In this document: positions 259 through 64,000 of the stretch, piece after piece
Position numbering within the stretch: the stretch's first letter is position 1
Layout of the letters: every line of letters starts with the position of its first letter
Source: Haliscomenobacter sp.
GTDB lineage: Bacteria > Bacteroidota > Bacteroidia > Chitinophagales > Saprospiraceae
DNA: 64,000 nucleotides
Direction: 5' to 3'
Assembly (NCBI RefSeq): GCF_965225875.1
Contig: NZ_CBDDBS010000003.1
Coordinates: 2,320,701 to 2,384,700 of the forward strand
The notes under the pieces: model-generated
The model's input: the letters and a program-made list of their open reading frames with translations, nothing else
Told to the model about the DNA's origin: nothing
The model's database searches: none
Position numbers and translations under genes: made by a program

Positions 259-372
259 TTTTTCACCACCTTAGAAACTTTAGGCACTTAAGACACACCT
301 TAGTTACTAAGTACATTGTTTCATATGCTTAGGTGTAACTTAAGTGCCTCAGGTTTCTGAGGTGGTGAAAAA
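259..372. repeat. Palindromic element H: 45-bp inverted arms containing ~9-nt CAC(C/T)T(T/A)AG units
   Basis: Arms 259-303 and 328-372 match at 39/45. Termini are TTTTTCACCAC...GTGGTGAAAAA. It fills the araB-araD gap. Confidence 0.85.
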
Positions 373-16513: not shown

Positions 16514-16642
16514 GCACAAAGGACACAATGGAAAGCACAGAGGACACAAAGTTAGACGTAGACAAGGATTATTCTTTAGAAATATGACCTCTGTCAACAT
16601 CTAACTTTGTGTCCTTTGTGCATTCCATTGTGTCCTTTGTGC
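16514..16642. repeat. Palindromic element F: 43-bp inverted arms, each a duplicated ~21-nt GCACAAAGGACACAA unit
   Basis: Arms 16514-16556 and 16600-16642 match at 41/43 around a 43-bp spacer, between convergent pyrB and the GxxExxY gene. Confidence 0.9.
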
Positions 16643-20540: not shown

Positions 20541-20631
20541 AGTTGAGGAGTTGAGAAGTTGAGGAGTTGAGGCTGCCGCGTGCGACCCACTCCTCAACTT
20601 CTCAACTCCTCAACTCCTCAACTTTCTCAAC
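20541..20631. repeat. Palindromic element A: AGTTGAG(G/A) octamer arms, truncated GCTGCCGC core
   Basis: Four octamers (20541-20572) face four inverted octamers (20592-20623), 30/32 match. It fills the whole intergenic gap up to the next ATG. Confidence 0.9.
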
Positions 20632-22611
20632 ATGAAATATTTTATCCAAACCGGCTTACTTTTAGCTGGTCTGCTTATCATACAGCTGTTTACCAGTTTT
20701 AGCTGGAGCGTAATTCCGCCGGCCAAAACACCTACGGAAGACGATTATTACAAAATCATCACCCTCCCCACTACCGAAGGAATGCTCCTGGAGGTGGGTG
20801 GGATAACCACTTTGCAAGACGGTCGCCTGGCCCTTTGTACCCGCCGTGGAGATGTATACTTGGTAGAAAACCCGGAAATGACCAACGGGACTTTGCCTCG
20901 TTATAAACTTTTCGCCTCCGGATTGCACGAACCATTGGGACTTGCTTCCAAAGACAATGCCCTCTACGCCGCCCAACGGGGTGAACTCACCAAGTTGATG
21001 GATACCAATGGCGACGACGTAGCCGATGTGTACGAAACCGTATACGCCTGGCCTGTTTCCGGCCACTATCACGAGTATTCTTACGGACCAAAATTTGCGC
21101 CCGATGGCAGCATGTTTGTCACTGGCAACGTAGCATTTGGTGACCAGGAATGGTGGCGGGGTGAAAGTCGGGTCTTTGGCCGCGGCTGGACCATGCGCAT
21201 TACCCCCGATGGCAAAATGGAGCCCTGGGCAACCGGGATGCGTTCCCCTTGCGGTTTGGGCATGATCGATGGTGAGTTGTTTTACGACGACAACCAGGGC
21301 GATTACATGGGCTCCGGGGGTATCTGGCACGTTAAAAAAGGCGCCTTCACCGGTCACCCCGCTGGTTTGGTATGGACCGATAAAATTGCCAACTCTCCGG
21401 TAAAAATGACCGCTGATCAGTTCAATGCGGTGGTCGATCCCCGAAAAGTTAAAAACTCAACTGGCGGGTACGAAAAACCCGAAAACATCGCCACCGAAAC
21501 CAACCCAAACACCCTTTTTGCCGTAAAAAGTAAATTGCCGGAAGTAACCTTACCTGCGGTTTGGTTGCCGCACGGGATTTTGGGCATTTCCAATTCTGAA
21601 ATTTTGCCCGATCAAACCAAAGGTGGATTTGGACCTTTTGCCGGTCAGGTTTTTGTAGGGGACCAGGGCCAAAGTCGCGTGATGCGCGTGGTGCTGGAAA
21701 AAGTGAAGGGTGAATACCAAGGGGTGGCCTTTGATTTCCGCAGCGGCTTCCAATCGGGAATCCTGCGCATGACCTGGGGTCACGATGGTTCATTGTACGT
21801 AGGTGAAACCAATCGCGGTTGGGGTTCAGCTGGAACGGCCACTTCTGGCTTGCAACGCCTGGCCTGGACAGGTAAAGTGCCGATGGAAATGAAAACGGTT
21901 CGTGCGATGCCTGATGGATTTGAGATTGAGTTCACCTTGCCCGTTGACAAAGCCAGCGCCGAAAATCTCGCTTCCTATTCCGGCAAAAACTTCATCTACA
22001 AATACCACCCAGTATACGGCAGCCCGCCCATCAGCGATACGCCGCTCGGCATCAAAGGGGTGAAAGTATCCGAAGATGGTCTGAAAGTGCGTTTGGTGAT
22101 CGACAACATCAAACAATACTACTTGCACGAAATCAAGGTGGATGGGATTCGTTCGCGTGATGGTTTACCCGTTTTGCACCCAACTGCCTACTACACCCTC
22201 AACAACATTCCAGACGGAGCTAAATTGAGCATGGCAGAAGTAAGTACCAAAAGAATGGAAGCCACGCCAGAAAAGGTGCTTGAAGAGGTGAAAGTTAAAG
22301 TACCCAAGGCCAAAAAGGGCAAAGAAACGGTAGAAGCCAAGGCACCTACTTACGATAAGGTACAACCCTTGTTGGCCAAGTGGACTTGTTTGGGTTGCCA
22401 CAACACCAACACCCGGCAGGTTGGCCCTTCTTTTATCGATATCGCCAAGCGCAAGTACAGCAACGAGCGCATCGTAGAATTGATTCACAAACCTGAGCCT
22501 AAAAACTGGCCCGAATACGCTACCGAAATGGCACCGATGTCTCAGGTACCGAAGGCGGATGCTTTGAAAATGGCGGCATGGATTAATTCTTTGCGGCAGG
22601 AAACACCTTAA
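20632..22611 (+). CDS. Glucose/sorbosone dehydrogenase-like beta-propeller with C-terminal class I cytochrome c
   Basis: Propeller motifs GLHEPLGL, GMRSPCG, YVGETNRGWG. Heme motif CLGCH, VGPSF and a distal Met region EMAPM. Confidence 0.72.
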   Translation: MKYFIQTGLLLAGLLIIQLFTSFSWSVIPPAKTPTEDDYYKIITLPTTEGMLLEVGGITTLQDGRLALCTRRGDVYLVENPEMTNGTLPRYKLFASGLHEPLGLASKDNALYAAQRGELTKLMDTNGDDVADVYETVYAWPVSGHYHEYSYGPKFAPDGSMFVTGNVAFGDQEWWRGESRVFGRGWTMRITPDGKMEPWATGMRSPCGLGMIDGELFYDDNQGDYMGSGGIWHVKKGAFTGHPAGLVWTDKIANSPVKMTADQFNAVVDPRKVKNSTGGYEKPENIATETNPNTLFAVKSKLPEVTLPAVWLPHGILGISNSEILPDQTKGGFGPFAGQVFVGDQGQSRVMRVVLEKVKGEYQGVAFDFRSGFQSGILRMTWGHDGSLYVGETNRGWGSAGTATSGLQRLAWTGKVPMEMKTVRAMPDGFEIEFTLPVDKASAENLASYSGKNFIYKYHPVYGSPPISDTPLGIKGVKVSEDGLKVRLVIDNIKQYYLHEIKVDGIRSRDGLPVLHPTAYYTLNNIPDGAKLSMAEVSTKRMEATPEKVLEEVKVKVPKAKKGKETVEAKAPTYDKVQPLLAKWTCLGCHNTNTRQVGPSFIDIAKRKYSNERIVELIHKPEPKNWPEYATEMAPMSQVPKADALKMAAWINSLRQETP

Positions 22612-22613
22612 AT

Positions 22614-22707
22614 AAAGATGAAAGATGAGAGATGCTACCGCAGAGACTTTGACAAGGTCATTGTCAAAAACGCTGCGGTAGCATCTCTCATCTTTCATCT
22701 CTCATCT
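22614..22707. repeat. Palindromic element D: A(A/G)AGATG heptamer arms, GCTACCGC...GCGGTAGC core, inner TTTGACAA hairpin
   Basis: Arms 22614-22643 and 22673-22702 match at 29/30. Inner hairpin TTTGACAA-GGTCA-TTGTCAAA at 22648-22668. Confidence 0.9.
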
Positions 22708-23745
22708 CTACTTCCCGCCCGTATACATCTTACAATCCACTCTGAATTCAATAAAGCGCTGATTGTTGGTTTCCAGAATTTCAGTGATTTTCAAACCTGG
22801 ATCTACAATTCCTCCCAGGTAAAAGTTTCTTCCACAGTAGTTGTGCAAATCCACCATCGGTAGCTTCATGTCATTCACATAGTAGATTTGTGAAGCGCCT
22901 GGCGCCAGGGTTTTAGTGTTGGAAATTCGTCCACCTATCACCAGTTTGTCTTCGGGGAACTGCCCAGCAACAGCTAACGGCGCATAGGCCATTGGTGCAG
23001 CGGTATTGGACGAGGTGATGATGTCCACCATATAGCCATTCGCAGGATCAGTATCCGTACCAACAGCAGGGCCAGTACCAATGTTTTTTACCTCAATTTT
23101 GAAGTCAGAAAAAGGCAAACCAGGGCCACCTACGGGATTGGCCAGGGCCATGTAGGTAATCACGAGATCAGGGCGAGGTGCGGTAGTTGAACCACTGCAA
23201 TCCAGTTTCACCCGAACAAAGCGGGTATTGTCATTTTCATTGGTTTCAGCTACTTTTTTACCGGGGTCGGCAATAGCACCGATGGCCACGTAGCCCAATT
23301 GGCAAGGTTTAGCAATTACTTTGGGCATTGGGAAACTTTCCAGGTAGGTGTCTTCCTGACCAGGAGCCAAAGTTTTGGTGTTGCTGTAGCGACCGCCGAT
23401 CACCAGCATGTCTTCCTGGTATTCGTAGGGGTTAGGTACTACTGCAAAGGCGATTGGTGCACTGGCATCGGTTGACAAAACCAGGTCAACCATATAGCCT
23501 TTGGCGGGGTCATCCAGGGTGCCGATGGCTTTGGCAGAGCCGATGTTTTTTACGGTTACTTTGCAATTGACCGTTTCACCTGGCACGTACACCGGTTTTT
23601 CTGGAACAATATTGGTAATGACCAGATTGGGGGCCGCAGCGGTTAACGCAGAAGGATTGACCACTAATGGGTTTTGAGCGGATGCCAAAATTGTGACCAA
23701 AGAGGCTACAAAAGTGAAAAGTGCGTTGAAGCTTAACTTTTTCAT
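22708..23745 (-). CDS. Exported protein with two tandem CARDB-like domains
   Basis: Signal peptide MKKLSFNALFTFVASLVTILASAQ (ATG 23745). Two repeats of P(N/D)LVIT...VKNIG...DPG.K..E..E.(D/N)N. No T9SS CTD. Confidence 0.78.
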   Translation of the reverse strand: MKKLSFNALFTFVASLVTILASAQNPLVVNPSALTAAAPNLVITNIVPEKPVYVPGETVNCKVTVKNIGSAKAIGTLDDPAKGYMVDLVLSTDASAPIAFAVVPNPYEYQEDMLVIGGRYSNTKTLAPGQEDTYLESFPMPKVIAKPCQLGYVAIGAIADPGKKVAETNENDNTRFVRVKLDCSGSTTAPRPDLVITYMALANPVGGPGLPFSDFKIEVKNIGTGPAVGTDTDPANGYMVDIITSSNTAAPMAYAPLAVAGQFPEDKLVIGGRISNTKTLAPGASQIYYVNDMKLPMVDLHNYCGRNFYLGGIVDPGLKITEILETNNQRFIEFRVDCKMYTGGK

Positions 23746-23874
23746 TGGGATGTTTTTATCAAGGTTAAAGATGTTTTGATTAAAGACCTTACATCCCAAT
23801 GTGTCAAACGCAGTTTGTTCCGTTCCACTTTTTTTTATTTTTTTGTAACCATTTAGCAGCCGCCTGCGGCGGAA

Positions 23875-23960
23875 TTTTTCACCACAAAGGCACAAAGACA
23901 CAAAGACATTAAGCTCTAAAATGTTGTGTCTTTGTGCCTTTGTGCCTTTGTGGTGAAAAA
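23875..23960. repeat. Palindromic element E: CACAAAG(G/A) octamer arms with TTTTTCACCAC termini
   Basis: Arms 23875-23908 and 23927-23960 match at 33/34. Termini identical to element H. Confidence 0.9.
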
Positions 23961-24021
23961 AATTGAATGTGAAATCCACCGCAGGTGGATGGGCGCTAAA
24001 TAGTTATATTTTTTTAACTGC

Positions 24022-25104
24022 TCATACTCCCACTTTGTACAAATCAATCGGTTTTTCTTTGCCCTTCAGACTAATGTTGCTTACTTTTTCCAGTGAATAT
24101 GGTGGGTTCGACAGGATATCAACCAGCTTATCTGTGATGACCATTTTAGCGCCAAGCGCGCCACATTCCTTCTCGACCCGCGAGGTGGTATTGAGCACAT
24201 CGCCCGAGAATTTGATAGACTTTTTGATTTGTCCCATCTCCCCGATGATCACTTTCCCACAGTGGACGGCTGCTTTAAATTGCGGGATAACGCCATAACG
24301 GCTGAGGTAGGTGGTCTTTTTTGTTTCGATCACTTTTTCAAAATCCTGGTAACAGGTCAGACAGCGCGTTTCAAACGAACCACTGGGAAAGGTCCAACTG
24401 ATGATCACCTGGTCGCCCACATACTCTACCACTTCACCTTTGTGTTGGGTAATGACTGCAGCGATATCGTGGAAAAAATCATTTAAAAACCGGTAGAATT
24501 TTTCGTTGCCCAGCTTTTCGGCAATCGTCGTGGAATGATTGAGGTCCAGAAACATAAAAATCCGTTGTTCTTCCTTGGGGTTAAAATACCGCCCACTGAA
24601 CATCATCCACAGTTCATTGCTCCCGAAGCGTTCGGACAATTGCAGCCAAAAAGAGGAAAGCAGCACCAGCAGCAGAATCGGAGAAACTGGATGCCAAAAT
24701 GCAATCGAGCCGATAAAGTTTCTAGTCTCCTGCCAAGCCAGCGGATCGCCGATGCTTCGGCCTGAAAGGATACTATTGAAGGCATAGGAAATGCTCAAAA
24801 GCAGCATAAACAATAGTACCGAATAAATGGCAATCTTTTTAAGAATGGCTACCCAAAATCTTTCTCGCGTGATCTTTTTTTGAAAATAAAACAGTTCCAG
24901 CAATCCAAAAAGCAGGCTTCCTACAAACAAACCGCCCATGGCCGCAATGGCATTTTTTCCCAAATTGAATTCCTCCATGGGGGCAGTTTCTAAAACTCCG
25001 GGATAATTGGCCAGAAAAAAATATTCGTACAAGGCGGTCAACAAACCCGCTGTCACCCATATTACGCTAATAACCGTCAATTGAACGAGTTGATTTCGTG
25101 TCAT
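24022..25104 (-). CDS. Membrane-bound class III adenylate/guanylate cyclase domain protein
   Basis: N-terminal TM segments; FMFLDLNHST, YVGDQV, GDVLNTTSRVE (metal Asp residues and N-x3-R). Confidence 0.88.
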   Translation of the reverse strand: MTRNQLVQLTVISVIWVTAGLLTALYEYFFLANYPGVLETAPMEEFNLGKNAIAAMGGLFVGSLLFGLLELFYFQKKITRERFWVAILKKIAIYSVLLFMLLLSISYAFNSILSGRSIGDPLAWQETRNFIGSIAFWHPVSPILLLVLLSSFWLQLSERFGSNELWMMFSGRYFNPKEEQRIFMFLDLNHSTTIAEKLGNEKFYRFLNDFFHDIAAVITQHKGEVVEYVGDQVIISWTFPSGSFETRCLTCYQDFEKVIETKKTTYLSRYGVIPQFKAAVHCGKVIIGEMGQIKKSIKFSGDVLNTTSRVEKECGALGAKMVITDKLVDILSNPPYSLEKVSNISLKGKEKPIDLYKVGV

Positions 25105-25228
25105 CGTTTAGTGTTGTTGTTGAAGTAAGGATACACAATGCCTGCAATAGTTGCAAGAAGGGTTTAGGCAAGCAGGGTGACAAATGCGAAGAAACTTTTT
25201 AAATACTCCATTGCAGTTGGCTAAAAGT

Positions 25229-25262
25229 AAAAAAGGGCAGAAGCACATTCAAGCTTCTGCCC
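25229..25262 (-). terminator. Intrinsic terminator after the PAP2/haloperoxidase gene
   Basis: GGGCAGAAGC / GCTTCTGCCC 10-bp stem followed by a U-tract on the minus strand. Confidence 0.75.
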
Positions 25263-25293
25263 TACCATTTCAAGTATTTTAGACAGGGGGCCC

Positions 25294-26832
25294 TTATTCA
25301 GCTCCGTCTAGTTTTGCTCTATTGAGGCTGTATTGTGCAACGTTTTTACCTTGGGTGATCCCCACCTCCGCATCAAAGCGGTAGTGAATACCTCCCAAAA
25401 TCCGGGACTCAGCAGCTTCATTTGCCCAATCTCTCGCTTTTTGGGCTTCGTTGGGGAAAACGTACGCTACAACTTCCGCGGCAGCAGCCGAAAACGTGCT
25501 GTGCCCGGAAGTGTAGGCAGGAAAGTTTGGAGTACCCAGTATTGTCTTGAACCCTGGAATTGCCTGGATTGGCCGGGGATAATGGTAGTAATATTTCGCA
25601 TCCCAACAGCTGATACCTGCGTCCATAACCGCCATGTTCAGGTAGGCAAAAGTGCGGGCCGAGCGTAGTGGGTTAAATTTGTATTCGATCAATAAATCTT
25701 TGACATAGCGATTCCAGTGCCCTGGAGGGGTATAAGTGCCCAAACCATCTGACCACCAGTTGGCTATTTTGCGCTGTTCCGGGGTGATTTTTTTGGCAAT
25801 ATCCTGTAATTCCTTGGCTGCGGTATTAAACTCCGCAGAACCTGGCGCTGGTGGCGGTCCTGGGCGAACCAATTCCACATTCGGTACATTCCACATTTTC
25901 ACCTTACCAAAAAGTGGTGCCAAACCAACCGGGCGTACCGGGGTTTCCTGATTGTCCCATTGCCAGCCAAAACGTTTTAAAGCAGCGGTTTTAATCGAAT
26001 CCGAAATGGGTCTGGGCGCTTGGGCCTTGCTCATGCCATCCGTCCGCGCTCTCGCCATAGCTACTTTGGCTACTTCCACCCCAATGGTGGCACCTGCGTC
26101 GATGTCGCTTTTTACGTTCACACCTGCCCAGGTTAGGCTGGACATGTGTTCCGTAGCTTTAGCAGCCAGGTAATCCTTTTCCAGCGGGAACATTGCCGTC
26201 AGGATATCCCGTGAGGCCGTTGCAACCACCGCTGCGTCGGCTGGATAAGCAGGCAGCGATGTTTTTGCGTAGGCGGGTACAATGCTGTTGTCAACGTCTG
26301 ATGGCGCTTTGCGATTGAAGGTATACTTGTAGTACCAGGCGCTGATCAAACCATCAAATTGTGCCACACTCAAATAGGCCAAGGCCCGTGAGGTGTACGG
26401 TGGATGGGCAAAAGGAAACTGCGGGTATTTGCTTGGATTGGCAGGATCCGGCAAAGTATAGGTCCCATCTGCATTGGGTTGGGGAATGATGTTGTACTTG
26501 GCGGCCAATTCGAGTGCAATCTCGTTCCAGCGCAAGACCGGATTATTGGTCCAATATTCGATCGCTTTCTTTTGGTCGCTGGTTAAATTGGCCATTGCCG
26601 TTTTTAGGGCAGCCAATTCATTTTTATAGTCGTCGGAAGTGACGTCCTTAGGAGTGGGAATGGAAATTTGGTTGCCCCCGCTTAGAAGGATTGGTTTCCA
26701 GGAACCTCCTTTTTCATCCAGGCTGGCAAAAGTGTAATCAGCATAATCGGCGTGGGTCAGCAAATCTTTTTCACAAGAAAAGGCGTAAACCAGACCGAAG
26801 GTCAAAATGATACGTATCCATTTATTTTTCAT
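25294..26832 (-). CDS. Lipoprotein, PAP2 / vanadium-dependent haloperoxidase superfamily, internally duplicated
   Basis: Lipobox-like AFSC followed by EKD. C-terminal motifs KYYYHYPRP (KX6RP), YTSGH and SRILGGIHYRFD (SRX5HX3D). Confidence 0.85.
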   Translation of the reverse strand: MKNKWIRIILTFGLVYAFSCEKDLLTHADYADYTFASLDEKGGSWKPILLSGGNQISIPTPKDVTSDDYKNELAALKTAMANLTSDQKKAIEYWTNNPVLRWNEIALELAAKYNIIPQPNADGTYTLPDPANPSKYPQFPFAHPPYTSRALAYLSVAQFDGLISAWYYKYTFNRKAPSDVDNSIVPAYAKTSLPAYPADAAVVATASRDILTAMFPLEKDYLAAKATEHMSSLTWAGVNVKSDIDAGATIGVEVAKVAMARARTDGMSKAQAPRPISDSIKTAALKRFGWQWDNQETPVRPVGLAPLFGKVKMWNVPNVELVRPGPPPAPGSAEFNTAAKELQDIAKKITPEQRKIANWWSDGLGTYTPPGHWNRYVKDLLIEYKFNPLRSARTFAYLNMAVMDAGISCWDAKYYYHYPRPIQAIPGFKTILGTPNFPAYTSGHSTFSAAAAEVVAYVFPNEAQKARDWANEAAESRILGGIHYRFDAEVGITQGKNVAQYSLNRAKLDGAE

Positions 26833-26847
26833 GGCGAATTGGCAATT

Positions 26848-27774
26848 TTAGAGTTTAAACTGATAGGTTACTCCGGCACCCATGTTTTGGAATTTACCCA
26901 TGTTGCGGCCATCGATGATTTGGGAATAATAAGCCAGGATACCCAAACCCTGGATGGCCTTGATGCCTTGGAAATAGTACTGGCCAAAGAAACCCACCTG
27001 GTCAAACGACATTTTGTTGGTCGGCTGTGGCGCATTGTAAATCCGAATGTCATCGCCCGTAAGGCAATGAACCGCCATGTAATTGGCCTCCAGTTTCAAG
27101 GAGTTGTTGAATAGCCAGACTCCCACAGCACCATGGTAATTCAGGGCATTGGGCACATCCATCCACTCGGAATAGTAGCTACCATTGTTGTAGTAATAAT
27201 CCCGCTCGACCTTGCTTTGTCCCCGCCAAAGGTGGGCAAAGGCGCCACGAGCATAAATGCCATTATCAAAGCGATACTGCAGGATACCACGCAAGGTGAC
27301 CTCTCTGGTTTTGAGGCCAATGCTAAAGGGCATGTAATCCGACAAATAATTGGATACCGGAAAAGAAAAACCAGCAGTAGTCAAGAAGGAAATCTTGCCC
27401 GGGCCCACCTGGCGGTTGAACAATTCTGCCTTGACGGCAATGCCCAGGTCTTGCAAACCTTTGGCACCTACCAACTGGCCACCCGTTGCATCCGTAGAGA
27501 TGTAGGGTACCCCGGCAAGTAGATTGATTTTGTCGGTAATGCCGTAAGCAAACATCGGCATGATGATCTCCCTGGAAAAAGTGCCAATGTTGCCATTTTC
27601 GCGCAGGCGGGTACCTTCCCAGTATTGATCCCAGGAGCCAGTTTCATAAGAGGCTGCCAAACAGATTTCCCGCTTTTTCATCATCAGGTCATCAGCAGGC
27701 GTTTGGGCAAATGCCGCGCCCAATTGGCTGAGTAGTACAGCCAACACGAGTATGTATTGGAAGTGATTTTTCAT
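26848..27774 (-). CDS. Outer-membrane beta-barrel protein (putative transporter)
   Basis: Signal peptide, amphipathic beta strands and C-terminal GVTYQFKL. 15 bp upstream of the PAP2 gene. Confidence 0.7.
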   Translation of the reverse strand: MKNHFQYILVLAVLLSQLGAAFAQTPADDLMMKKREICLAASYETGSWDQYWEGTRLRENGNIGTFSREIIMPMFAYGITDKINLLAGVPYISTDATGGQLVGAKGLQDLGIAVKAELFNRQVGPGKISFLTTAGFSFPVSNYLSDYMPFSIGLKTREVTLRGILQYRFDNGIYARGAFAHLWRGQSKVERDYYYNNGSYYSEWMDVPNALNYHGAVGVWLFNNSLKLEANYMAVHCLTGDDIRIYNAPQPTNKMSFDQVGFFGQYYFQGIKAIQGLGILAYYSQIIDGRNMGKFQNMGAGVTYQFKL

Positions 27775-27855
27775 CGAAAAAAGTTAAACCAATGAGTATT
27801 AGCCATGGCACTTCAAGAGCGCATGGTCATTAAAAACAAAGAAAAGCATGAAAAA

Positions 27856-28401
27856 TCAGGCCAACTGCGGCGGTGGAGTAAGAATGGAAAGGTCAGACAA
27901 ATCAACTAAGTCTTTGAAAATAAGCGGTTGAGCAGTTTTTGTGCAATGATCAAAAAGTGGGTTAATGTCCAGGATAAGGTGTTCTTCAAAGCAAAAGTCG
28001 GAGAAAAAACGCTCCGTCAAAGTTTTAGGTGCTGAACGATCTTCCTGGTTTTGTGGCTGGTCAACCTTGTATTCGTGGCGAAGGCCATGTGGAGATTTGG
28101 CGTCAACGGTGTAGTATTGGGTTTCCCCGTCGGTTTCTTCCGAGAAGAGGAAGGGAGCACCATAACCCATCCCCTGAACGACCTTGAGGTCTTTTTTGTC
28201 TTGGATTTTAACATTGGCGGTTACCCCAATTTCGGCTTTAAGCTTCTGGGCAATCGCGGTTTCTTTGGCGTTCATCAGGTGTTCAATCCGGGCAGTGTAG
28301 ACCACATTGATAAACACCCGCCCCCCTATCCACTGCACCACGATGAGCAGGATAAGCAGCCAAGCGCCAATTGATCTTAGGGATTGCCTGAACTTGTTCA
28401 A
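27856..28401 (-). CDS. Hypothetical protein with an N-terminal TM segment and a C-terminal PPP motif
   Basis: 181-aa ORF co-oriented with the barrel/PAP2 operon, ending LSILTPPPQLA. Confidence 0.65.
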   Translation of the reverse strand: MNKFRQSLRSIGAWLLILLIVVQWIGGRVFINVVYTARIEHLMNAKETAIAQKLKAEIGVTANVKIQDKKDLKVVQGMGYGAPFLFSEETDGETQYYTVDAKSPHGLRHEYKVDQPQNQEDRSAPKTLTERFFSDFCFEEHLILDINPLFDHCTKTAQPLIFKDLVDLSDLSILTPPPQLA

Positions 28402-28548
28402 TGCACCTTGTTTTGATGATTACAAGTAAGAACAGCATTTGCCATTCTGGTGCAAGAACGGAATTATCTAAAAAAAAGCAAAACAATGGCCATATTTATT
28501 TTGGTAGCACTAAAAAAGGCGGGTAGATTTTAGAGAATTAACAATGCG

Positions 28549-28833
28549 TCAAAAGCCAAACGCATCGATTAAACCTTTCATGACACAAAGAGCGCCAAGG
28601 GTAGTTAACACATACATCGGTACAATAAATGAACGGTCATCAGATTGAAAAAGCAAAAATTGAATCATAAAACTCAGGCCCATAATCCCTACGCCGACGG
28701 CCATCCAAGTCAGGCCCCGTTGGAAGAGGCGGAGGTTTTTTTCTTTGCTTAGTGCATCCAATTCTGGTGGACTCGAATCCATGGAGCCATCATTGGGCCC
28801 GTAGTTTTGATCTTGAGGTGTCATTGGTTCCAT
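28549..28833 (-). CDS. Small hypothetical membrane protein (2 TM)
   Basis: 94 aa with two hydrophobic segments; occupies an otherwise empty gap. Confidence 0.6.
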   Translation of the reverse strand: MEPMTPQDQNYGPNDGSMDSSPPELDALSKEKNLRLFQRGLTWMAVGVGIMGLSFMIQFLLFQSDDRSFIVPMYVLTTLGALCVMKGLIDAFGF

Positions 28834-28939
28834 TTTCTACCTATTTAGATTGTTTTAATAAAAGCAAGATAATCAAAATTTAAATTGGAAATTGAAATAA
28901 ATGCAATAAACTAAATGGCTATTGTGCCTAATTCTACTT

Positions 28940-30049
28940 TCATCGTTCAATACCTTCCACCTTCCCACCTTCTACAAAAAACCGCCGATAATCTACCCCA
29001 AACTGCTCCACAATCTCCGCAATCCTCGTCTCATGCGTATCCGTGATAAAAATCTGCCCAAACTGCCCTTCGGTGAGCAGGCGGATCAGGTGGGTGACCC
29101 GCTGGGCATCCAGTTTGTCAAACAAGTCATCAAGGAGTAAAATTGGCGATACGCCCTTGTTTTGGCGCAACATCTCGTATTGCGCCAACTTAAGCGCCAG
29201 CAAAAAGGATTTTAACTGCCCTTGCGAGCCGTATTTTTTCAGTGGATGCTCACCCAGGCTAAAAACCAGGTCATCGCGGTGTACCCCCTTGGTGGTGCGT
29301 TGCAGGGCCAGGTCCTTTTGCCGACTTTGTTTCAAGAGGTCTTCCAGGTCGTTTTCCAGGAGTTGTGACTCGTAAGTCAATTGCACAGCCTCCTTCCGGC
29401 CGGTGATGTATTGGTGGGTCGATTGAAAAATGGCGGTAAATTTTTGCGTAAACACTGCCCTTTGTTCCAAAACGTACAAAGCCGGGTCAATCAACTGCTC
29501 ATCGTACACATCCAACAAGCTCATGCTCCCGCCGCTGCGTTCGGCCAGGCTTTTCAGCAGGGCGTTGCGTTGCTGCAACACCTTATTATAAGTAATCAGT
29601 TCGTACAAATAACGCTGATCAAGTTGGGAGAGGGTATTGTCCAAAAAACGCCGCCGCTCTTCACTGCCTTCGCGGATGAGTTGAATATCGTCAGGGCCGA
29701 TAAAAACCACGGGCAGGAGGCCGATGTGTTCAGCCAGTTTGGAATAAGCCACATCATTGCGTTCGAGTTCCTTGAGTTTGCGTGGCATCACCTTGGCCAC
29801 GATTTTTTCTTTTTTTTCCTGCAAAATAAAATGGCCTTCCAGGCGGAAGAAATTTTCATCGTGCCGGGCGATGGCATTGTCGGCCAGGTTGAAGTGGCTT
29901 TTGGCCATACACAAATAATAAATGGCGTCGAGCAAGTTGGTTTTGCCCATACCATTGTTGCCCACCAGGCAATTCAAGCGGGTGGAAAAGTCAAGCTTTT
30001 GATTTTCGTAATTTTTAAAATTCGCTAAAGCAATGCGTTCGAGGTACAT
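28940..30049 (-). CDS. recF: DNA replication and repair protein RecF
   Basis: Walker A GNNGMGKTN, EERRRFLD, GSQGQ, LLLDD. Confidence 0.95.
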   Translation of the reverse strand: MYLERIALANFKNYENQKLDFSTRLNCLVGNNGMGKTNLLDAIYYLCMAKSHFNLADNAIARHDENFFRLEGHFILQEKKEKIVAKVMPRKLKELERNDVAYSKLAEHIGLLPVVFIGPDDIQLIREGSEERRRFLDNTLSQLDQRYLYELITYNKVLQQRNALLKSLAERSGGSMSLLDVYDEQLIDPALYVLEQRAVFTQKFTAIFQSTHQYITGRKEAVQLTYESQLLENDLEDLLKQSRQKDLALQRTTKGVHRDDLVFSLGEHPLKKYGSQGQLKSFLLALKLAQYEMLRQNKGVSPILLLDDLFDKLDAQRVTHLIRLLTEGQFGQIFITDTHETRIAEIVEQFGVDYRRFFVEGGKVEGIER

Positions 30050-30062
30050 GAAGCGTCAATTG

Positions 30063-30139
30063 AGCAATCAGCTATGAGCTATCAGCAATCAGCATTCAGA
30101 GATCGCCTGGAAGCTGATTGCTGAATGCTGATTGCTGAT
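30063..30139. repeat. Palindromic element G: AGC(A/T)AT(C/G) heptamer arms
   Basis: Five heptamers face four inverted ones, with a perfect 19-bp inverted repeat (30081-30099 / 30121-30139). It starts 14 bp upstream of the recF start codon. Confidence 0.88.
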
Positions 30140-30207
30140 CAACAAAATAGCTTTTCGGGCGTTGAAGGTAAAAATAAAAATCTGCCAGACACTTTTGTCG
30201 GAAGATA

Positions 30208-30215
30208 TATATTTG
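30208..30215 (+). promoter_or_regulatory. -7 promoter element, probably for pdhA
   Basis: TATATTTG in the recF/pdhA divergent region. Confidence 0.5.
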
Positions 30216-30329
30216 CCTTATCTTTAGCTCGACTATTCAACAAACATAGCGAAATTTCGCTAAGAGTAAGTTTAAAAGGCAGGTTTTGAGCATGTCTAAT
30301 TTTAAACCACTCCTAAACATACAGTGCAC

Positions 30330-31367
30330 ATGGGTTCGGTTGTAGAAAAGAAAGCATCAGCCAAAAAAAGCAGCAACAAGATCACTTACAGCAAAGAGCA
30401 GTACCTCTATTGGTATGAATTGATGCTGCGCATCCGCCGTTTTGAAGAACGTGCGCTGATGATGTATGGACAGCAAAAGATTCGCGGTTTCTGTCACGTT
30501 TACATTGGTCAGGAGGCCGTAGCTGCGGGTATTGAGTCGGCGATCACCAAACAGGATGGCATCGTAACAGCCTATCGCCAGCACGGGATTGCGTTGGCCA
30601 GAGGGGTAAGCTCTCGGCAGGCTATGGCCGAGTTGTACGGCAAAGCAACGGGTATCGTGAAAGGTAAAGGTGGTTCTATGCACTTTTTCGATGCTGGCAA
30701 TAAGTATTTTGGTGGAAATGGTATCGTTGGTGCTCAAATTCCAATCGGAACGGGCATCGGTTTTGCTGAAAAATACAAAGGCACCAAAAATTTCTGCGTG
30801 ACCATGTTCGGCGACGGAGCTTCCCGCCAGGGAGCCCTGTACGAGTCTTTCAACATGGCCATGACCTGGAAGTTGCCCGTTTTGTACATCGTGGAAAACA
30901 ACGGTTACGCCATGGGTACATCCGTTGAGCGTACTTCCAATGTAGAAGAACTGTGGAAGATTGGTTTGAGCTTTGAAATGCCCAGCGAATCGGTGGATGG
31001 CATGAGCCCAGAATCGGTACACGAAGCCATCTCACGCGCGGCTGAGCACATACGTGCAGGAAATGGTCCCTACTTCCTGGAAATCCGTACTTACCGCTAC
31101 AAAGGTCACTCGGTATCCGACCCTGCCAAGTACCGCACCAAAGAAGAGGTACAAGCTTACCAGGATCGTGACCCCATCAAGGTGACTGAAGAAAAAATCC
31201 TGAGCGAAAAAATTGCTACGGAAGCAGAGATTCAAGCCATTAAGGACAAAATCAAGGCAGAGATCGAGGATTGTGTACAATTCGCTGAAAACTCACCTTA
31301 TCCAGACGCTTCGGAGCTTTATACCGACAACTACACAGAATCTGACTACCCTTACATCAATTATTAA
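30330..31367 (+). CDS. pdhA: Pyruvate dehydrogenase E1 alpha subunit
   Basis: GFCHVYIGQEA, GKGGSMH, TPP motif GDGA...ENN, TYRYKGHS. Confidence 0.95.
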   Translation: MGSVVEKKASAKKSSNKITYSKEQYLYWYELMLRIRRFEERALMMYGQQKIRGFCHVYIGQEAVAAGIESAITKQDGIVTAYRQHGIALARGVSSRQAMAELYGKATGIVKGKGGSMHFFDAGNKYFGGNGIVGAQIPIGTGIGFAEKYKGTKNFCVTMFGDGASRQGALYESFNMAMTWKLPVLYIVENNGYAMGTSVERTSNVEELWKIGLSFEMPSESVDGMSPESVHEAISRAAEHIRAGNGPYFLEIRTYRYKGHSVSDPAKYRTKEEVQAYQDRDPIKVTEEKILSEKIATEAEIQAIKDKIKAEIEDCVQFAENSPYPDASELYTDNYTESDYPYINY

Positions 31368-31402
31368 ACCAGCGCTAAGGGCTCAAATTCAAAATAATAG
31401 AC

Positions 31403-31442
31403 AAATACGGCGACAGCTAAAAAGCTACCGCCGTATTTTTTT
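31403..31442 (+). terminator. Intrinsic terminator after pdhA
   Basis: AAATACGGCG / CGCCGTATTT stem followed by a T-run. Confidence 0.75.
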
Positions 31443-31554
31443 GTCTTAAATAGGGGGGGAAACAAAACTTTATTTATTTTTGCGTTCCTAATTGGCAAAT
31501 CACACATCAGTTGTGACCTGCCAATTAAATATAACTAGCTAACAAAGACAGAAA

Positions 31555-32274
31555 ATGGCAAAAGGAAGACAGGTGCGCAGGGGTGCTGCTCCTAAGGCTG
31601 CGAATCGGCCAGAAGATGAAGTTTTGGTGGATATTGTAGAGGTTCGCGATCGCGCACAGGACACGTTGAATCGTTTTCGTAAACCTTTGATGATTGCAGG
31701 TGCTGCTGTAGCAGTGCTCATAATAGGTTTGATCGCTTGGAAATTGTATGTAGGCTCTCAGCAAAAAGAAGCTGTTGAGCAAATGCGCCAGGCCGAACGT
31801 TTGTTCGAACGCGATTCGTTCGCTACTGCAATGTTGAAAACCCTGCCTGGTGGCTTCAAAGGGTTCCCTCAAATCATTGAAGATTATCCAGGTACACCCG
31901 CAGCAAATCTGGCCAACTATTACGCCGGCGTTTGTTTGTTGAACCTGGGCAAATACGACGCTGCCATCAGCTACCTCAAGGACTTTAGCCCTAAAGGCAG
32001 TGTAATGCCCATCATGAAAAATGGTGCCTTGGGCGATGCTTATTCTGAAATCAAGGATTTCGCCAGTGCCAAAAGCTACTACAAAAAAGCAGTAAGTGGT
32101 AAGGCCAACGAACTCCTGACTCCATTTTACCTCAAGCGTTTGGCCATGCTGGCGCAAAAAGAAAATGACATCGCAGCTGCCCGCGAATACTACCAAGAGT
32201 TGAAAGATGAATATCCAAGTGCCCCTGAAGGCCAGGATGCTGAAAAATATTTGATCTTCTTGGAAGGAAAATAA
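31555..32274 (+). CDS. Membrane-anchored tetratricopeptide repeat protein (YfgM-like)
   Basis: Single TM followed by TPR helices (ANLANYYAGVCLLNLG, GALGDAYSE). TATTTTTG box at 31475-31482. Confidence 0.82.
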   Translation: MAKGRQVRRGAAPKAANRPEDEVLVDIVEVRDRAQDTLNRFRKPLMIAGAAVAVLIIGLIAWKLYVGSQQKEAVEQMRQAERLFERDSFATAMLKTLPGGFKGFPQIIEDYPGTPAANLANYYAGVCLLNLGKYDAAISYLKDFSPKGSVMPIMKNGALGDAYSEIKDFASAKSYYKKAVSGKANELLTPFYLKRLAMLAQKENDIAAAREYYQELKDEYPSAPEGQDAEKYLIFLEGK

Positions 32275-32300
32275 TCTTTTCCAAGGGTCACTTTGTTTGG

Positions 32301-32341
32301 AAAAAGGTAAGAAGGCATTGGTGGCTTTCTTACCTTTTTTT
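32301..32341 (+). terminator. Intrinsic terminator after the TPR gene
   Basis: AAAAAGGTAAGAAGG / CTTTCTTACCTTTTT stem plus T-run. Confidence 0.7.
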
Positions 32342-32349
32342 GTTAAGAT

Positions 32350-32459
32350 GTTGAGGAGGTTGAGAAGTTGAGAAGTTGAGGCTACCGCAAACGGTCGCTG
32401 AGCGAAGTCGAAGTGTCGCTCGCGGCAGCCTCAACTTCTCAACTTCTCAACTTTTCAAC
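32350..32459. repeat. Palindromic element B: AGTTGAG(A/G) octamer arms, GCTACCGC...GCGGCAGC core, nested GTCGCTGAGCGAAGTCGAAG motif
   Basis: Octamer runs flank the 8-bp core halves at 32381-32388 and 32422-32429, with a 33-nt spacer. Confidence 0.9.
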
Positions 32460-32474
32460 CCAAAACCACAATAC

Positions 32475-32993
32475 ATGGCTAGCGCCCTCAAAAATCTTTC
32501 CCACTACGACGAAGATTCCCTGCCATCTGCTGCTGACTTGCGCTTTGGTATCGCAGTAGCCGATTGGAATGCCAAAATTACCCATGCTTTGTACCAGGGC
32601 TGCCTCGATACTTTGCTCAAACATGGAGCCAAGGAAGAAAACATCCATATGGTACAAGTGCCCGGTTCCTTTGAATTGCCTTCCGCGGCCCGTTTGTTGG
32701 CTGGTGCCCACAAACTGGATGCCATTGTGGCCATTGGTTGTGTCATCAAAGGAGAAACCAACCACAACGAGTACATCAACAACAGTGTGGCAATGGGCTT
32801 GACCAACTTGAGCATTGCCACCAATATTCCCTGTATTTTCGGTGTACTTACCCCCAACGACGAGCAACAGGCCCTTGACCGGGCTGGTGGCATACATGGC
32901 AATAAAGGTGTGGAAGCGGGTGCCACCGCCATCCGCATGGCCGCCCTTAAAAAGCAACTGCAACAAGGAGAAAAAAGTAAAATTGGGTTTTAA
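32475..32993 (+). CDS. ribH: 6,7-dimethyl-8-ribityllumazine synthase
   Basis: VPGSFELP, GCVIKGETNH, CIFGVLT, GNKGVEAG. ATG 32475; the track start lies inside repeat B. Confidence 0.95.
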   Translation: MASALKNLSHYDEDSLPSAADLRFGIAVADWNAKITHALYQGCLDTLLKHGAKEENIHMVQVPGSFELPSAARLLAGAHKLDAIVAIGCVIKGETNHNEYINNSVAMGLTNLSIATNIPCIFGVLTPNDEQQALDRAGGIHGNKGVEAGATAIRMAALKKQLQQGEKSKIGF

Positions 32994-32999
32994 ATTACA

Positions 33000-33027
33000 G
33001 TAGAGACGGGATGCGTCGCGTCTCTAC
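33000..33027. repeat. GTAG-type REP-like palindrome
   Basis: GTAGAGACG-GGATGCGTCG-CGTCTCTAC between ribH and ribB. Confidence 0.75.
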
Positions 33028-33044
33028 CGACCATTATATACAAC

Positions 33045-34190
33045 ATGGAAGCTCAGACCATTGAAACCAACATTCAACTCCATACCGTAGAAGAAGCCAT
33101 CGAAGCCATTCGCAAAGGTGAAGTCATCATCGTAGTAGATGATGAAGACCGCGAAAACGAAGGCGATTTCATCTGCGCTGCAGAGACTGTAACCCCCGAA
33201 ATCATCAACTTCATGGCCACTCACGGCCGGGGCTTGATTTGTACCCCGCTGGACGAGCGCCGTGCAGATGAGCTTGACCTCCCAATGATGGTCTCCTCCA
33301 ATACTGCGCTGCACGAAACGGCCTTTACGGTGTCCATCGACCTGATTGGCCACGGCTGCACCACCGGGATTTCTGCCTACGACCGGGCTACGGGTATTCG
33401 TGCTCTGGTGGACCCGAATACCAAAGCTAAGGATTACGCCCGTCCAGGACACATTTTCCCGCTTAGAGCCAAACAAGGCGGGGTGTTGCGCCGTACCGGG
33501 CATACCGAAGCAGCGATCGATCTGGCTCGCATGGCCGGCCTGTACCCGGCAGGCGTATTGGTAGAAGTGTTAAACGAAGATGGGACGATGGCTCGTTTGC
33601 CTGATTTGTATAAAATTGCCCAGCGCTTTGGCCTCAAAATCATTTCCATCGATGATTTGGTTGCTTACCGCATGCAAACCGAACGTTTGGTCAAACGGGT
33701 CACCTCGGTACAATTGCCAACCCGATTCGGAGAATTTGAAGTGATTGCTTATGAACAAATCCCTGGCGGGGACGTCCATTTGGCCTTCAAATATGGTGAA
33801 TGGAATGAAGATGAATCTATCCTAGTACGCGTCCATTCCTCTTCTGAAGCTGGCGACATCATTGGTAACTTGTTTGAAGAACAGGGGCTTCATCACCACC
33901 AGGCCATTCAAGCTATTCAAAAGGAAGGTAAAGGAGTGGTACTGTTTATGCGGCAATCAGAAAAGGGAGATGCAGCTTTGTTGGCTGCTTTGCAACAGTT
34001 ACAACAACAACGCGAGCAAGGTAAGGAAATGAAAATCCGCAACGAAATGACCCAACGCGATTTTGGCGTCGGCGCCCAAATCCTGCGCGACCTTGGCATT
34101 TGTAAATTGCGTTTGTTGACCAATCATCCCCGCCGCAGGGTAGGTCTGATTGGATATGGGTTGGAAATTGTGGAGAATGTGCCGTTTTGA
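33045..34190 (+). CDS. ribB: 3,4-dihydroxy-2-butanone-4-phosphate synthase fused to a degenerate GTP cyclohydrolase II domain (RibBX-type)
   Basis: [18 protein letters not shown] and GHTEAA are intact. The GCH II region reads [11 protein letters not shown] and lacks the Zn-binding cysteines. Confidence 0.92.
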
Positions 34191-34223
34191 GCTTAGGGAA
34201 AGTTGGAGGAGGAGATGAATAAT

Positions 34224-34258
34224 ACAACTTTGTGTCCACAAAAACGGCACAAAGTTGT
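34224..34258. terminator. Hairpin between convergent ribB and hlyD (possible bidirectional terminator / REP-like)
   Basis: Perfect 11-bp stem ACAACTTTGTG / CACAAAGTTGT. Confidence 0.55.
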
Positions 34259-34286
34259 GTCTCTTTTATTAGAGAATCACTGGGAA

Positions 34287-35588
34287 TCAATAGCTCCGAT
34301 AGCCCCGGATGCCCGAAAAAATTCGTTCAATAAACCGGCGCTCCTCGGTAATGATGCGACCTTTCCCATACAATTCCTCATCACTGGGCACCAGCTTCCC
34401 GGCCGTAGTTACCATTTTATTGGGGAAAATTACCTCAACGGCCACTTCCGATTTTTCGCCATCGTCACGGGGGGATAAGGCTTTCCAGGCTACTATCCCC
34501 TCCAGGACACCAAACTCCTGAAAGTCCAGGCTTTCCAAACGGACCACTACTTTTTGATTGAGTTTAACCCGGCCTGAGCGATTGAAAGGAATGAACATTT
34601 TGCCGATTATCTCTTTATTTTTGTTGGGAATGACCACCATCAATTGTTCATCTTTGTACACAAAGCTGTTCTCCGCTACATTTCTACCCACAATTTGAAC
34701 CATGCCGCTGCGTGGAGATTCAATGAGGTGGCGCTGCTTCCAGGTGTTCACACCTTCCCGCAAGTGGTTGAACGACTCTCTTAGCACATCTGAAGCAAAA
34801 TTGGTTTCATTGTCGGCACCACTTTCCAGGCTGCGCACCTTGATTCGTAATGCAGAAAGCTCTGATTCCCGATCGCGGATTTCGGTTTCGGTACGAATCA
34901 ATTCCTTGTTGAATTCCATAATCCGGCTCTGTACCCGATTGACATCATCCTGGGAAGCTTGATTCACCGAGACGAGGTGTTCCTTGTTTTTTCGTTCTTG
35001 TTCGGCTACGGCTATCTGCTCCTGAATCTGCCTGCGCATTTCTTTTTGGTAGTCGAGACTCCGATCCAGGCGACTAATTCTGCTCTGGGAAGAGCGCAAG
35101 TCAGAACTGGAAAGGTCTTTGTACAGCTCAGAGTTGTACTTGAGTTGTACGTCCTGGAAGTCAAATAAATCCGCTTGCAATTCCCCCAGTACCAGATTAC
35201 TGGGGACCTTGAACTTCAACAAGTCTTCATCCCGCAAACTGTGTAGTGCAGTGATGTAGTCATCAAGCGTCAATACATGGCGGAAATTAGCGGTGCTGCG
35301 AAAGGCAATCAGGGCTTGTCCCGAATCCACCTGGCTATTGTTTTTCACCACCACTTCTTCAATTCGATTGGCGTTGGGGGCAGTGATGCGCACGGGTGGA
35401 TCTTTGGAAACCAAACGTATATCCGCCTCTACTATATCAGGGTATTTTACCAAAAAAGACAGCCACATCAAAACGACAAACAGGGCCAAGGCGGTCAAGC
35501 TACCCCAACGCACCATCCAGGAGGGCGGTGTCCCCAGAATTTCCTGTACTTCCTCGCTGCGGATTTCAATGTCTTCTAATTCTTTCAT
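34287..35588 (-). CDS. HlyD family secretion adaptor
   Basis: RSEEVQEILGTPPSW N-terminus, one TM, long coiled coil, IESPRSG, GRIITEERRFIERIF. Confidence 0.9.
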   Translation of the reverse strand: MKELEDIEIRSEEVQEILGTPPSWMVRWGSLTALALFVVLMWLSFLVKYPDIVEADIRLVSKDPPVRITAPNANRIEEVVVKNNSQVDSGQALIAFRSTANFRHVLTLDDYITALHSLRDEDLLKFKVPSNLVLGELQADLFDFQDVQLKYNSELYKDLSSSDLRSSQSRISRLDRSLDYQKEMRRQIQEQIAVAEQERKNKEHLVSVNQASQDDVNRVQSRIMEFNKELIRTETEIRDRESELSALRIKVRSLESGADNETNFASDVLRESFNHLREGVNTWKQRHLIESPRSGMVQIVGRNVAENSFVYKDEQLMVVIPNKNKEIIGKMFIPFNRSGRVKLNQKVVVRLESLDFQEFGVLEGIVAWKALSPRDDGEKSEVAVEVIFPNKMVTTAGKLVPSDEELYGKGRIITEERRFIERIFSGIRGYRSY

Positions 35589-35594
35589 TTTATT

Positions 35595-35715
35595 GGTTTA
35601 GGAGGTTGAGGAAGGTTGAGGAAGGTTGAGGCTGCCGCGAGCTATTTTGAAAATGTCTTTGTCAAAATCGCTGGCGGCAGCCTCAACCTCCCTAAACCAT
35701 CTCAACCTTCTCAAC
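35595..35715. repeat. Palindromic element C: GGTTGAGGAA 9-10-mer arms, GCTGCCGC...GCGGCAGC core, inner TTTGAAAA/TTGTCAAA hairpin
   Basis: Core halves at 35631-35638 and 35674-35681 with a 35-nt spacer. Fills the gap between the ABC transporter and hlyD. Confidence 0.88.
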
Positions 35716-61433: not shown

Positions 61434-61886
61434 ATGGGACAATCTCTAGTAAAGAACTACATCCACATCGTATTCAGCACCAAATACCGCCAGCAGCTGA
61501 TCTACCCGCCTTATGAGCAGGAGCTGCACAGTTACCTGGGGGGGATATGCAATGAGCTGGGCTGTCAATCCATCATCGTGGGAGGGTATACTGATCATGT
61601 GCATATTCTGTGCCTCTTATCCAAAAAGATAGCGCTGATGGACTTGGTGGAAAAGGTGAAAGCCAATTCTTCGAAATGGTTCAAGACGAGGCATGAATCG
61701 CTTAAGAATTTTTACTGGCAGGACGGGTATGGGGCCTTTTCGGTAAATCCAAAACAAGTAGACATTGTGATTAGGTACATTGCCAACCAACATGAACACC
61801 ACCGAAAAAAGGACTTCCAAGCGGAATACAGGGCTTTTTTGAAAAAGTACAAAGTAGAATATGATGAGCGCTACGTTTGGGAGTAA
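61434..61886 (+). mobile_element. tnpA: IS200/IS605-family Y1 HUH transposase (TnpA / RAYT-like)
   Basis: 150 aa; YIHIVFSTKYR, HUH motif DHVHIL, WQDGYGAFSV, catalytic Tyr in YIANQHEHH. Confidence 0.9.
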
Positions 61887-63686: not shown

Positions 63687-63690
63687 TTAG

Positions 63691-64000
63691 TGGAGGCGGC
63701 GAGAGTCGAACTCGCGTCCAGAGAAAGCACTCATTAGCCTTCTACATGCTTAGTTGCTTATTTTGGTCTCAGCACAAGGGTAGGTCCAGCAACGCACCAG
63801 TCTTGTACCCAGCCCGTAATCTCAAACAATGACGCGGGCCGCATCATTGTTCCAGCCTAGCATTGGTGATGTACGGGTGCGGGCCGGTTAGGCATAGGCC
63901 GAGGCTCCGTGGAGCCGTGCACCGTCGTACAATGACTTTCTAATTCCTAGAATTAGGCAGCCATGGCGTAGTTAGATTCGCCATTTATGGTTCGATGATT
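63691..64000 (-). ncRNA. ssrA: tmRNA, 5' end beyond the window
   Basis: Minus strand 3' end GCGAG-TTCGACT-CTCGC (T-arm) plus CGCCTCC-A (acceptor strand with U70; CCA not encoded). Tag frame 63982-63953 reads GESNYAMAA*. Confidence 0.93.

Follow-up and report, generated by a model that had tools for sequence, protein, structure and literature searches.

Which process generates and maintains intergenic palindromes that join one conserved core to several kinds of tandem-repeat arms? The question is raised by four elements, here called A, B, C, and D, in a stretch of 64,000 nucleotides (the window; C3:2320701-2384700) from a genome of Haliscomenobacter, a filamentous bacterium of activated sludge. 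The original prediction for this DNA held that an inverted 8-bp core (GCTRCCGC...GCGGYAGC), three different arms, and swappable centres recombine as modules and that the constant distance between the core halves marks a site recognized by a protein. The elements were followed through the whole genome under study (G000; 8.37 Mb, 47% G+C), a genus sample of 12 Haliscomenobacter genomes, including the relatives G001, G002, G004 to G006, and G008 to G011, and an outgroup sample of 29 other genera of the family and order. A family of about 200 non-coding hairpin repeats, half and stub derivatives included, is real, and its members are probably composite palindromes remodelled from the tip.

Copy number and anatomy of the repeat family

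Core halves facing each other at a spacing of 30 to 38 nt occur about 125 times in G000, against 0.3 expected from the half-site counts over the whole 8.37 Mb, and a profile built on the core plus centre finds 163 loci in the same genome; the prospect that the window elements have few other genomic copies can be dismissed. Spacings peak at 33 nt (58 copies), 35 nt (40 copies), and 34 nt (17 copies). About half of the 234 hairpins with GTTGAG-type arms carry the full core, and among the others are ~27 with half of the core and centre, ~13 stubs like element A, and ~20 with a different tip motif.

Each copy comprises ~100 to 120 nt in three layers, summarized by the consensus (GTTGAGRA)n GCTACCGC (G)AGCGACTTAGACAAGGACATTGTCAAAATCGCT(C) GCGGTAGC (TYCTCAAC)n. 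The outer arms, 5'-(GTTGAGRA)n ... (TYCTCAAC)n-3', are arrays of 3 to 5 tandem words of 7, 8, or 10 nt; they enclose a conserved shell, GCTRCCGC(G)AGCGA ... TCGCT(C)GCGGYAGC, within which lies an imperfect inner hairpin. Core plus centre, 49 to 51 nt in all, are homologous throughout ~160 copies, and chance similarity of the cores is therefore excluded. The constant spacing, in which the original prediction had seen a sign of a protein-recognized site, follows from the same homology, because the centre is one conserved hairpin of 33 or 35 nt, with or without an extra G:C pair; a separate spacing constraint is unnecessary. A protein-recognized core is plausible, since two mismatches in the centre are conserved (77% of copies have C.A at one, and 79% have A.A or G.A at the other).

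The arms have a median length of 28 bp and a complementarity of 92%, with mismatches mainly of the A:C (130) and G:T (114) types at the R/Y positions of the words. Their polarity is fixed, a purine-word array preceding the centre and a pyrimidine-word array following it in 137 hairpins, with the reverse arrangement in 0. Arms belonging to the same element resemble each other more closely (21.2/24) than arms taken from different elements do (18.4/24; permutation p < 5e-4). The centre is polar as well, with GACTTAGAC on one side and GATTTTGAC on the other in 70 elements and like halves in ~8. The copies are old, diverged residents: the best full-length pairs are 85 to 93% identical, and centres differ at a median of 8/33 positions. 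The arm words contain TGA or TAG, in A to D and genome-wide, at periods of 7, 8, or 10 nt, and the 5' arm therefore places stops in all three frames directly after the stop of an open reading frame (ORF), a pattern read off the sequence.

The four elements of the window

Each window element, none of them assigned to a strand, takes up nearly the entire spacer between two genes and, as single-stranded DNA, forms a single long hairpin with a folding energy of -32 to -44 kcal/mol and a z score of -9.9 to -13.8; 0 of 200 shuffles folded as well. Element D (22612-22709) has AGATGAR heptamer arms around GCTACCGC (22634-22641), a 33-nt centre hairpin (22642-22674), and GCGGTAGC (22675-22682); it spans the gap separating two convergent stop codons (-41.6 kcal/mol; z, -13.8). 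The arms of element C (35595-35715) consist of the 10-mer GGTTGAGGAA, and a hairpin of 35 nt (35639-35673) forms its centre, with the cores on either side at 35631-35638 and 35674-35681. One minus-strand gene starts on one flank of C and the next stops on the other; C folds at -43.6 kcal/mol (z, -12.8). The inner hairpin TTTGAMAA-N5-TTGTCAAA is common to C and D.

Element B (32347-32460) combines GTTGAGRA octamer arms with cores at 32381-32388 and 32422-32429, spaced by 33 nt, between which a 'B-apex' motif, GGTCGCTGAGCGAAGTCGAAGTG (32393-32415), stands in place of most of the standard centre. Just upstream lies a plus-strand inverted repeat that resembles a terminator (32301-32339; 32301-32345 with its T-run), and this separate hairpin is kept in all relatives, whether B is present or not; B therefore does not serve the upstream gene as its terminator. 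Element A (20541-20631) occupies the whole spacer from the stop codon at 20537 to the ATG at 20632. Its GTTGAGRA-word arms (20541-20571 and 20590-20631) enclose a 'stub' centre consisting of a single core half, GCTGCCGC, at 20572-20579, plus GTGCGACCCA; A matches the reverse complement of B's right side at 16/18 positions and folds at -32.4 kcal/mol (z, -9.9). The core pairs, spacings, and arm units of B, C, and D, the hairpin common to C and D, and the B-type arms and single core half of A had all been predicted, and all were verified in the sequence. None of the four copies, when inspected for the features of an intrinsic terminator, has a T-run directly 3' of it.

Association of arm type and centre type

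Arms and centres were tabulated for 155 full elements of G000. TTGAG-word arms (137 of the 155) accompany the standard centre in ~119 cases, B-apex in 8, a CACAC-rich block termed 'centre-3' in 4, and a short centre in 5. GAYGAAT heptamer arms (8 elements) have a 21- to 23-nt centre in 6, and AGATGAR arms (8 elements) always have the standard centre with a signature of its own, ...AAAAACGCT. Arm type and centre type are thus strongly, though not absolutely, linked (odds ratio, 89; p = 9e-7). Moreover, the arm words GTTGAGAA, GATGAGA, GATGAAT, and GACGAAT are one or two mutational steps apart, and the arms of C and D are not unrelated, as had been supposed. Given this linkage and the single steps between words, the appearance of one core with three arms mostly reflects subfamily divergence. 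For the most part, subfamilies are passed down intact while their two arms change fast and in concert; they do not reassort freely. Strict linkage of arm and centre had been named as the mark of separate families with cores alike by chance; the linkage is indeed strong, yet the chance likeness is excluded by the homology of core and centre.

Turnover at orthologous sites

The four window sites and 12 randomly picked elements were compared with five relatives at sites whose flanks are 87 to 99% identical. In the resulting 65 comparisons, the core element was kept 37 times, a coreless tandem-word hairpin was found 13 times and a different repeat family 5 times, and 10 sites were empty, with 6 to 30 nt remaining.

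Site C has identical arms in five species (G000, G001, G002, G004, and G011) and four different centres: the standard one in G000 and G011, an internally deleted one in G001, a coreless B-apex in G004, and the core with the CACAC-rich centre-3 in G002. The site is empty in G005, G008, and G009, where 6 to 18 nt separate the genes. At site D, the core is retained with three arm words, GACGAAT in G001, GATGAAT/GATAAAT in G005 and G011, and AGATGAR in G004, and the centre is of 21 nt in G005 and G011. Site B is empty in G001, with flanks 99% identical, and in G009, and it is occupied by five other hairpin types in G004, G011, G008, G006, and G002. At site A, G000 and G001 have the left core half and G005 has the right one; this site is empty in G004, G008, G011, and G009.

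Outside the window, the centres at C3:735318 are exact reverse complements of each other in G000 and G001, with the arms unchanged, and the same flip-flop is seen at C2:4458164 and C2:4069200. Five arm/centre combinations are found in five species at C2:2609695, and at several sites both arms change jointly from 8-mers to 10-mers; in general, the words, period, and length of the two arms alter together. At C2:2393968, G008 carries another palindromic family between remnants of GTTGAG arms, a nested insertion at the former tip. The idea that arms, core, and centre recombine as modules therefore stands in so far as swaps do occur at orthologous sites; the strong linkage between arm and centre speaks against such exchange as the rule.

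Genomic position and RNA-related signals

Copies lie between co-directional genes in 75% of cases, between convergent genes in 18%, and between divergent genes in 7%, against a background of 66%, 17%, and 17%, so that divergent spacers are depleted; at least one of the neighbouring genes has its 3' end towards the element in 93% of copies. The median distance from an element edge to the adjacent stop codon is 5 nt (49% are within 10 nt) and to a start codon 32 nt, and the median overlap with called ORFs is 0 nt for the ~160 full copies.

No sign of selection on RNA pairing was found. Centre polarity is random with respect to gene direction (18 versus 28), the arm mismatches show no sense-strand excess of G:U (80 versus 108 of the A:C type), and changes in the inner hairpin mostly break pairs without compensatory changes. 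Rfam 15 gave no match at the gathering score, and a permissive threshold yielded only sub-threshold look-alikes of microRNA precursors.

Distribution among genomes

The core pattern is present in 8 of the 12 genus genomes, with 11 to 169 copies each, and is absent from the other 4 and from the 29 other sampled genera of the family and order. A scan of the whole collection matched records of Haliscomenobacter and of Saprospiraceae and Chitinophagales metagenome-assembled genomes (MAGs) only, and viral contig and plasmid collections contained no match. Only part of the genus Haliscomenobacter thus has the family. Arm words alone extend to 10 of the 12 genomes. G010 has ~150 GTTGAG/GTTGAA word arrays and no core; a gapped pattern search of this genome gave 0 matches, and a simple pattern revealed tandem arrays (loci L234 to L239), of which all 4 that were inspected stand alone, a complementary partner being absent within 130 nt. 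G006 retains the shell GCTACCGC-GAGCGAC...GTCGCTC-GCGGTAGC around variable interiors. Several MAG contigs of G001, G005, and G008 terminate exactly at elements, e.g., G008:C293 at site D and contigs of G005 and G008 at C2:2190936; assemblies are therefore broken up by the repeats, and MAGs understate the number of copies.

Other tip modules and palindromic repeats

The motif at the centre of B, GGTCRCTGAGCGNAGYCGAAGYGCC, occurs ~78 times in G000, nearly always at the centre of a palindrome. About 25 of these ~78 occurrences have unique, perfectly paired stems of 20 to 32 bp (e.g., C3:1334855-1334939 and C1:594592-594678). This motif has a wider distribution than the core: 9 of the 12 genus genomes have it, as do several other genera and families within the order. 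At its orthologous sites the outer stem is conserved, and the inner stem has diverged or been replaced and yet is perfectly paired, with the motif in either orientation.

Four further palindromes of the window (259-372, 16514-16642, 23875-23960, and 30059-30139) have tandem-word arms and no GCTRCCGC core; their arm words are CTTAGGTG/GGTGAAAAA, CACAAAGR (twice), and ATCAGCW. Genome-wide, G000 contains ~495 long palindromes, which can be grouped into several tandem-word families. A family resembling MITEs (miniature transposable elements with inverted repeats), with the ends ACATGAATCATCCCGAATTT...AAATTCGGGATGAYTCATGT, encloses hairpins of CACAAAG words or REP-type repeats in relatives (loci L164, L168, L169, L172, and L226); at the orthologous positions (C1:594592, C2:2920853, C2:2508605, and C1:288772), G000 has a different hairpin.

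Some 23S rRNA intervening sequences carry a small S23p/IVP gene. Two 23S-rRNA-IVP genes (PF05635) are present in G000, at C2:595925-596239 and C2:2399626-2399913. One has complete GACGAAT-word hairpins on both flanks; the other is flanked by inverted arrays of GTGTGRG/CACACYC words, which are the words of the centre-3 block.

Y1 transposase genes and rejected identities

Eight Y1_Tnp loci were found in G000. One lies in the window (61434-61886, plus strand) and encodes a Y1 transposase of 150 aa of the IS200/RAYT type (RAYT stands for REP-associated tyrosine transposase and REP for repetitive extragenic palindrome). Upstream of this gene are GC-rich hairpin repeats of its own, GGGCTATGCCCTAT and CAGGGCTA...TAGCCCTG, unrelated to the GCTRCCGC family. 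Y1 genes are equally numerous in the four genus genomes without the family. Around the family's own copies there are no target-site duplications, the mean boundary repeat being 1.63 nt, versus 1.68 nt in a control with shuffled partners.

Two other identities were considered. Integron attC sites were rejected: they belong to cassette arrays and read RYYYAAC on the left, GTTRRRY on the right, whereas the scattered copies of this family have, on either strand, GTT on the left and AAC on the right. Binding of (G/U)AG repeats as by TRAP was set aside, given that the words are base-paired and that TRAP is a Bacillus-specific protein. The window also contains a tmRNA gene (63688-64000, minus strand; Rfam RF00023, 86 bits), truncated by the window end.

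Origin and maintenance of the repeats

The elements are, in our judgment, probably composites that resemble paired REP hairpins (REPINs) or bacterial interspersed mosaic elements (BIMEs), built on word arrays of the short tandemly repeated repetitive (STRR) kind and remodelled from the tip. They would spread as whole units into spacers beside stop codons, leaving no target duplication, by a process whose substrate is probably the folded single strand; candidate movers are an enzyme of the HUH/Y1 type acting in trans and template switching during replication. The arms would then evolve by slippage, complementarity being kept by one arm templating the other within the hairpin. The tip may be the fragile part, cleaved and then repaired, in some cases from family members with the same arms, which would yield apparently swappable modules. 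The tip is flipped, presumably by exchange between the arms, or loses one side, which leaves halves and stubs such as A, or is replaced by other modules, namely, the B-apex motif (as in B) or a CACAC-word block. Whole elements are lost cleanly or superseded by other palindromic repeats.

Several observations weigh against this account. No GCTRCCGC element lies within 4 kb of any of the eight Y1 loci, and no mobilizing enzyme was found; 6 of the 7 Y1 loci examined carry different hairpin repeats on their flanks, and the eighth has an in-frame stop. Neither a longer autonomous element with the same arms (complementary arrays enclosing a gene-sized insert) nor a gene family enriched beside copies was found in G000. 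Near-identical copies that would mark a recent burst, or an unambiguous recent insertion, were likewise not found in this genome, and every empty orthologous site could equally be explained as a clean deletion. Centre polarity shows no bias with respect to GC skew, although flip-flop would erase such a bias. Tip cleavage and arm templating are read from patterns, not from observed events. Finally, some hairpin is present in 55 of the 65 orthologous comparisons (85%) despite sequence turnover, which could mean selection for a hairpin and not selfish persistence.

Such selection just after stop codons is the main rival. It would make the elements RNA hairpins at gene 3' ends, serving as mRNA stabilizers, RNase III/E sites, or terminators, for which repeats supply interchangeable sequence, and it would account for the close approach to stop codons, the depletion of promoter-only divergent spacers, the very stable folds, and the retention of a long hairpin where words, core, or family differ. 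We nevertheless regard it as unlikely, because orientation is random relative to transcription, the arms have no sense-strand G:U excess, the inner hairpin is uncompensated, Rfam has no match, and none of the window copies is followed by a T-run; moreover, B lies downstream of a separate conserved T-run terminator, and elements are cleanly absent from close relatives, as B is from G001. Classical REPINs, i.e., REP doublets moved by a single RAYT that reads a GTAG-containing core hairpin, would agree with the numerous hairpin-forming intergenic copies without target duplications, with the GTAG in the core, with the eight Y1_Tnp loci, one of them in the window, and with the conserved stem mismatches, a kind of feature that HUH enzymes read. 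This explanation seems quite unlikely in view of the distance between the copies and the Y1 loci, the different REP-type hairpin that accompanies each of six readable RAYT genes with flanking repeats, and the equal number of Y1 genes where the family is lacking. Tandem-word arms are not a REPIN feature, and GTAG-REPs have their tag at the 5' end of the stem-loop (PMC3733652), whereas no 5' GTAG/CGTC tag is seen in the family, whose GTAG, in GCGGTAGC, is 3' of the inner stem-loop on both strands.

Free modular reassortment of arms, core, and centre could explain why TTGAG arms have four kinds of centre, why the core has at least four arm types, and why swaps occurred in situ at sites C, D, and S3; it is improbable given the arm-centre association, a centre signature for each arm type (e.g., AAAAACGCT with AGATGAR arms), and words that differ by single steps. 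Its opposite extreme, in which A to D are separate families with cores alike by chance, is excluded by a core plus centre that is homologous in ~160 copies. That the elements are ordinary MITEs, i.e., internally deleted derivatives of a DDE-type insertion sequence with the arms as terminal inverted repeats, would suit their short, palindromic, numerous, and intergenic copies and their conserved ends (GTTGA...TCAAC). This is very improbable and already close to refuted: target-site duplications are absent, no longer element with such ends exists in the genome, and viral contig and plasmid collections have no match.

The composite, tip-remodelled palindrome that we favour may be one case of something broader, which we put forward tentatively and with considerable doubt. 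Hairpins with tandem-word arms could form a class of self-maintaining elements, 'palindromic micro-satellites', in which arm templates arm and the tip is a site where landing and repair depend on structure. Small modules, namely, the GCTRCCGC core unit, GGTCRCTGAGCGNAGYCGAAGYGCC, and CACAC-word blocks, would settle in the centre of such palindromes or supplant it, giving nested 'Russian-doll' elements, and the same insertion at tips might lie behind rRNA intervening sequences.

Relation to known repeats and significance

Although small repeats such as REPs, STRRs, and heptamer arrays were recognized decades ago, their origin and dynamics are largely unexplained. Cyanobacterial STRRs are reportedly intergenic tandem heptamer repeats. 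Comparable intergenic repeats are GGGAATC in Xanthomonas and GGGGAYT in Nostoc, singular or in convergent pairs (Rehm et al. 2015; PMC4692102), and the tandem TAACTGA repeats of Beggiatoaceae (PMC4679880). The Haliscomenobacter family likewise consists of head-to-tail words of similar length (7 to 8 or 7 to 9 nt in STRR-like repeats) in spacers near ORF ends, by a mechanism as unexplained there as here, and it too exists in solo (G010) and paired (137 in G000) forms; 16% of the repeats of Rehm et al. are at convergent and 7 to 8% at divergent gene pairs (PMC4692102), compared with 18% and 7% in this study. Unlike STRR-like repeats as described, however, the arrays here are paired around a conserved core module of 50 nt, which has its own subfamilies and forms an exchangeable tip.

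The REPs, BIMEs, and REPINs of Enterobacteria and Pseudomonas are also present as hundreds of imperfect extragenic hairpins (PMC3116915, PMC3733652, and PMC2817692). They share with the family a mosaic or modular build, a position mostly at gene 3' ends, variability between relatives, the lack of target duplications, and a pair of inverted halves that together form a single long hairpin. With ~160 full copies, the family exceeds the >100 short imperfect extragenic palindromes by which REPs and REPINs are recognized, whereas a cognate RAYT flanked by the same repeat is lacking, the nearest copy being at least 4 kb from the eight Y1_Tnp loci. In contrast to REPINs, the arms are tandem arrays of 7- to 10-nt words, and the conserved part is at the hairpin tip and not in the stems. 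Foldback (FB/Galileo-type) transposons of Drosophila (PMC3573991) similarly have inverted arms of short tandem repeats, variable in length, and variable central segments, but they are eukaryotic elements of kilobase size that duplicate their target sites and whose autonomous copies encode a known transposase. In 23S rRNA intervening sequences, e.g., of Coxiella (PMC4990558), the tip of a helix has given way to an extended hairpin; those sequences lie inside rRNA and are removed by RNase III, whereas the likeness of the family to them is drawn from intergenic DNA copies only.

Paired word arrays that enclose an exchangeable conserved core module are undescribed for the word repeats named above, and a literature search on Haliscomenobacter repeats and on palindromes with tandem-repeat arms found no description. 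In practice, the elements break MAG assemblies and would serve as markers for typing Haliscomenobacter strains. With ~200 copies of a readable, layered anatomy, and with a dozen sister genomes that record concerted arm change, flip-flop, tip deletion, tip replacement, and clean loss, the family could make the origin and dynamics of small repeats testable. If tip-directed remodelling and arm templating are true, they would provide an account of how long palindromes survive and evolve in bacterial chromosomes and would connect REP-like elements with tandem-word repeats and possibly with rRNA intervening sequences.

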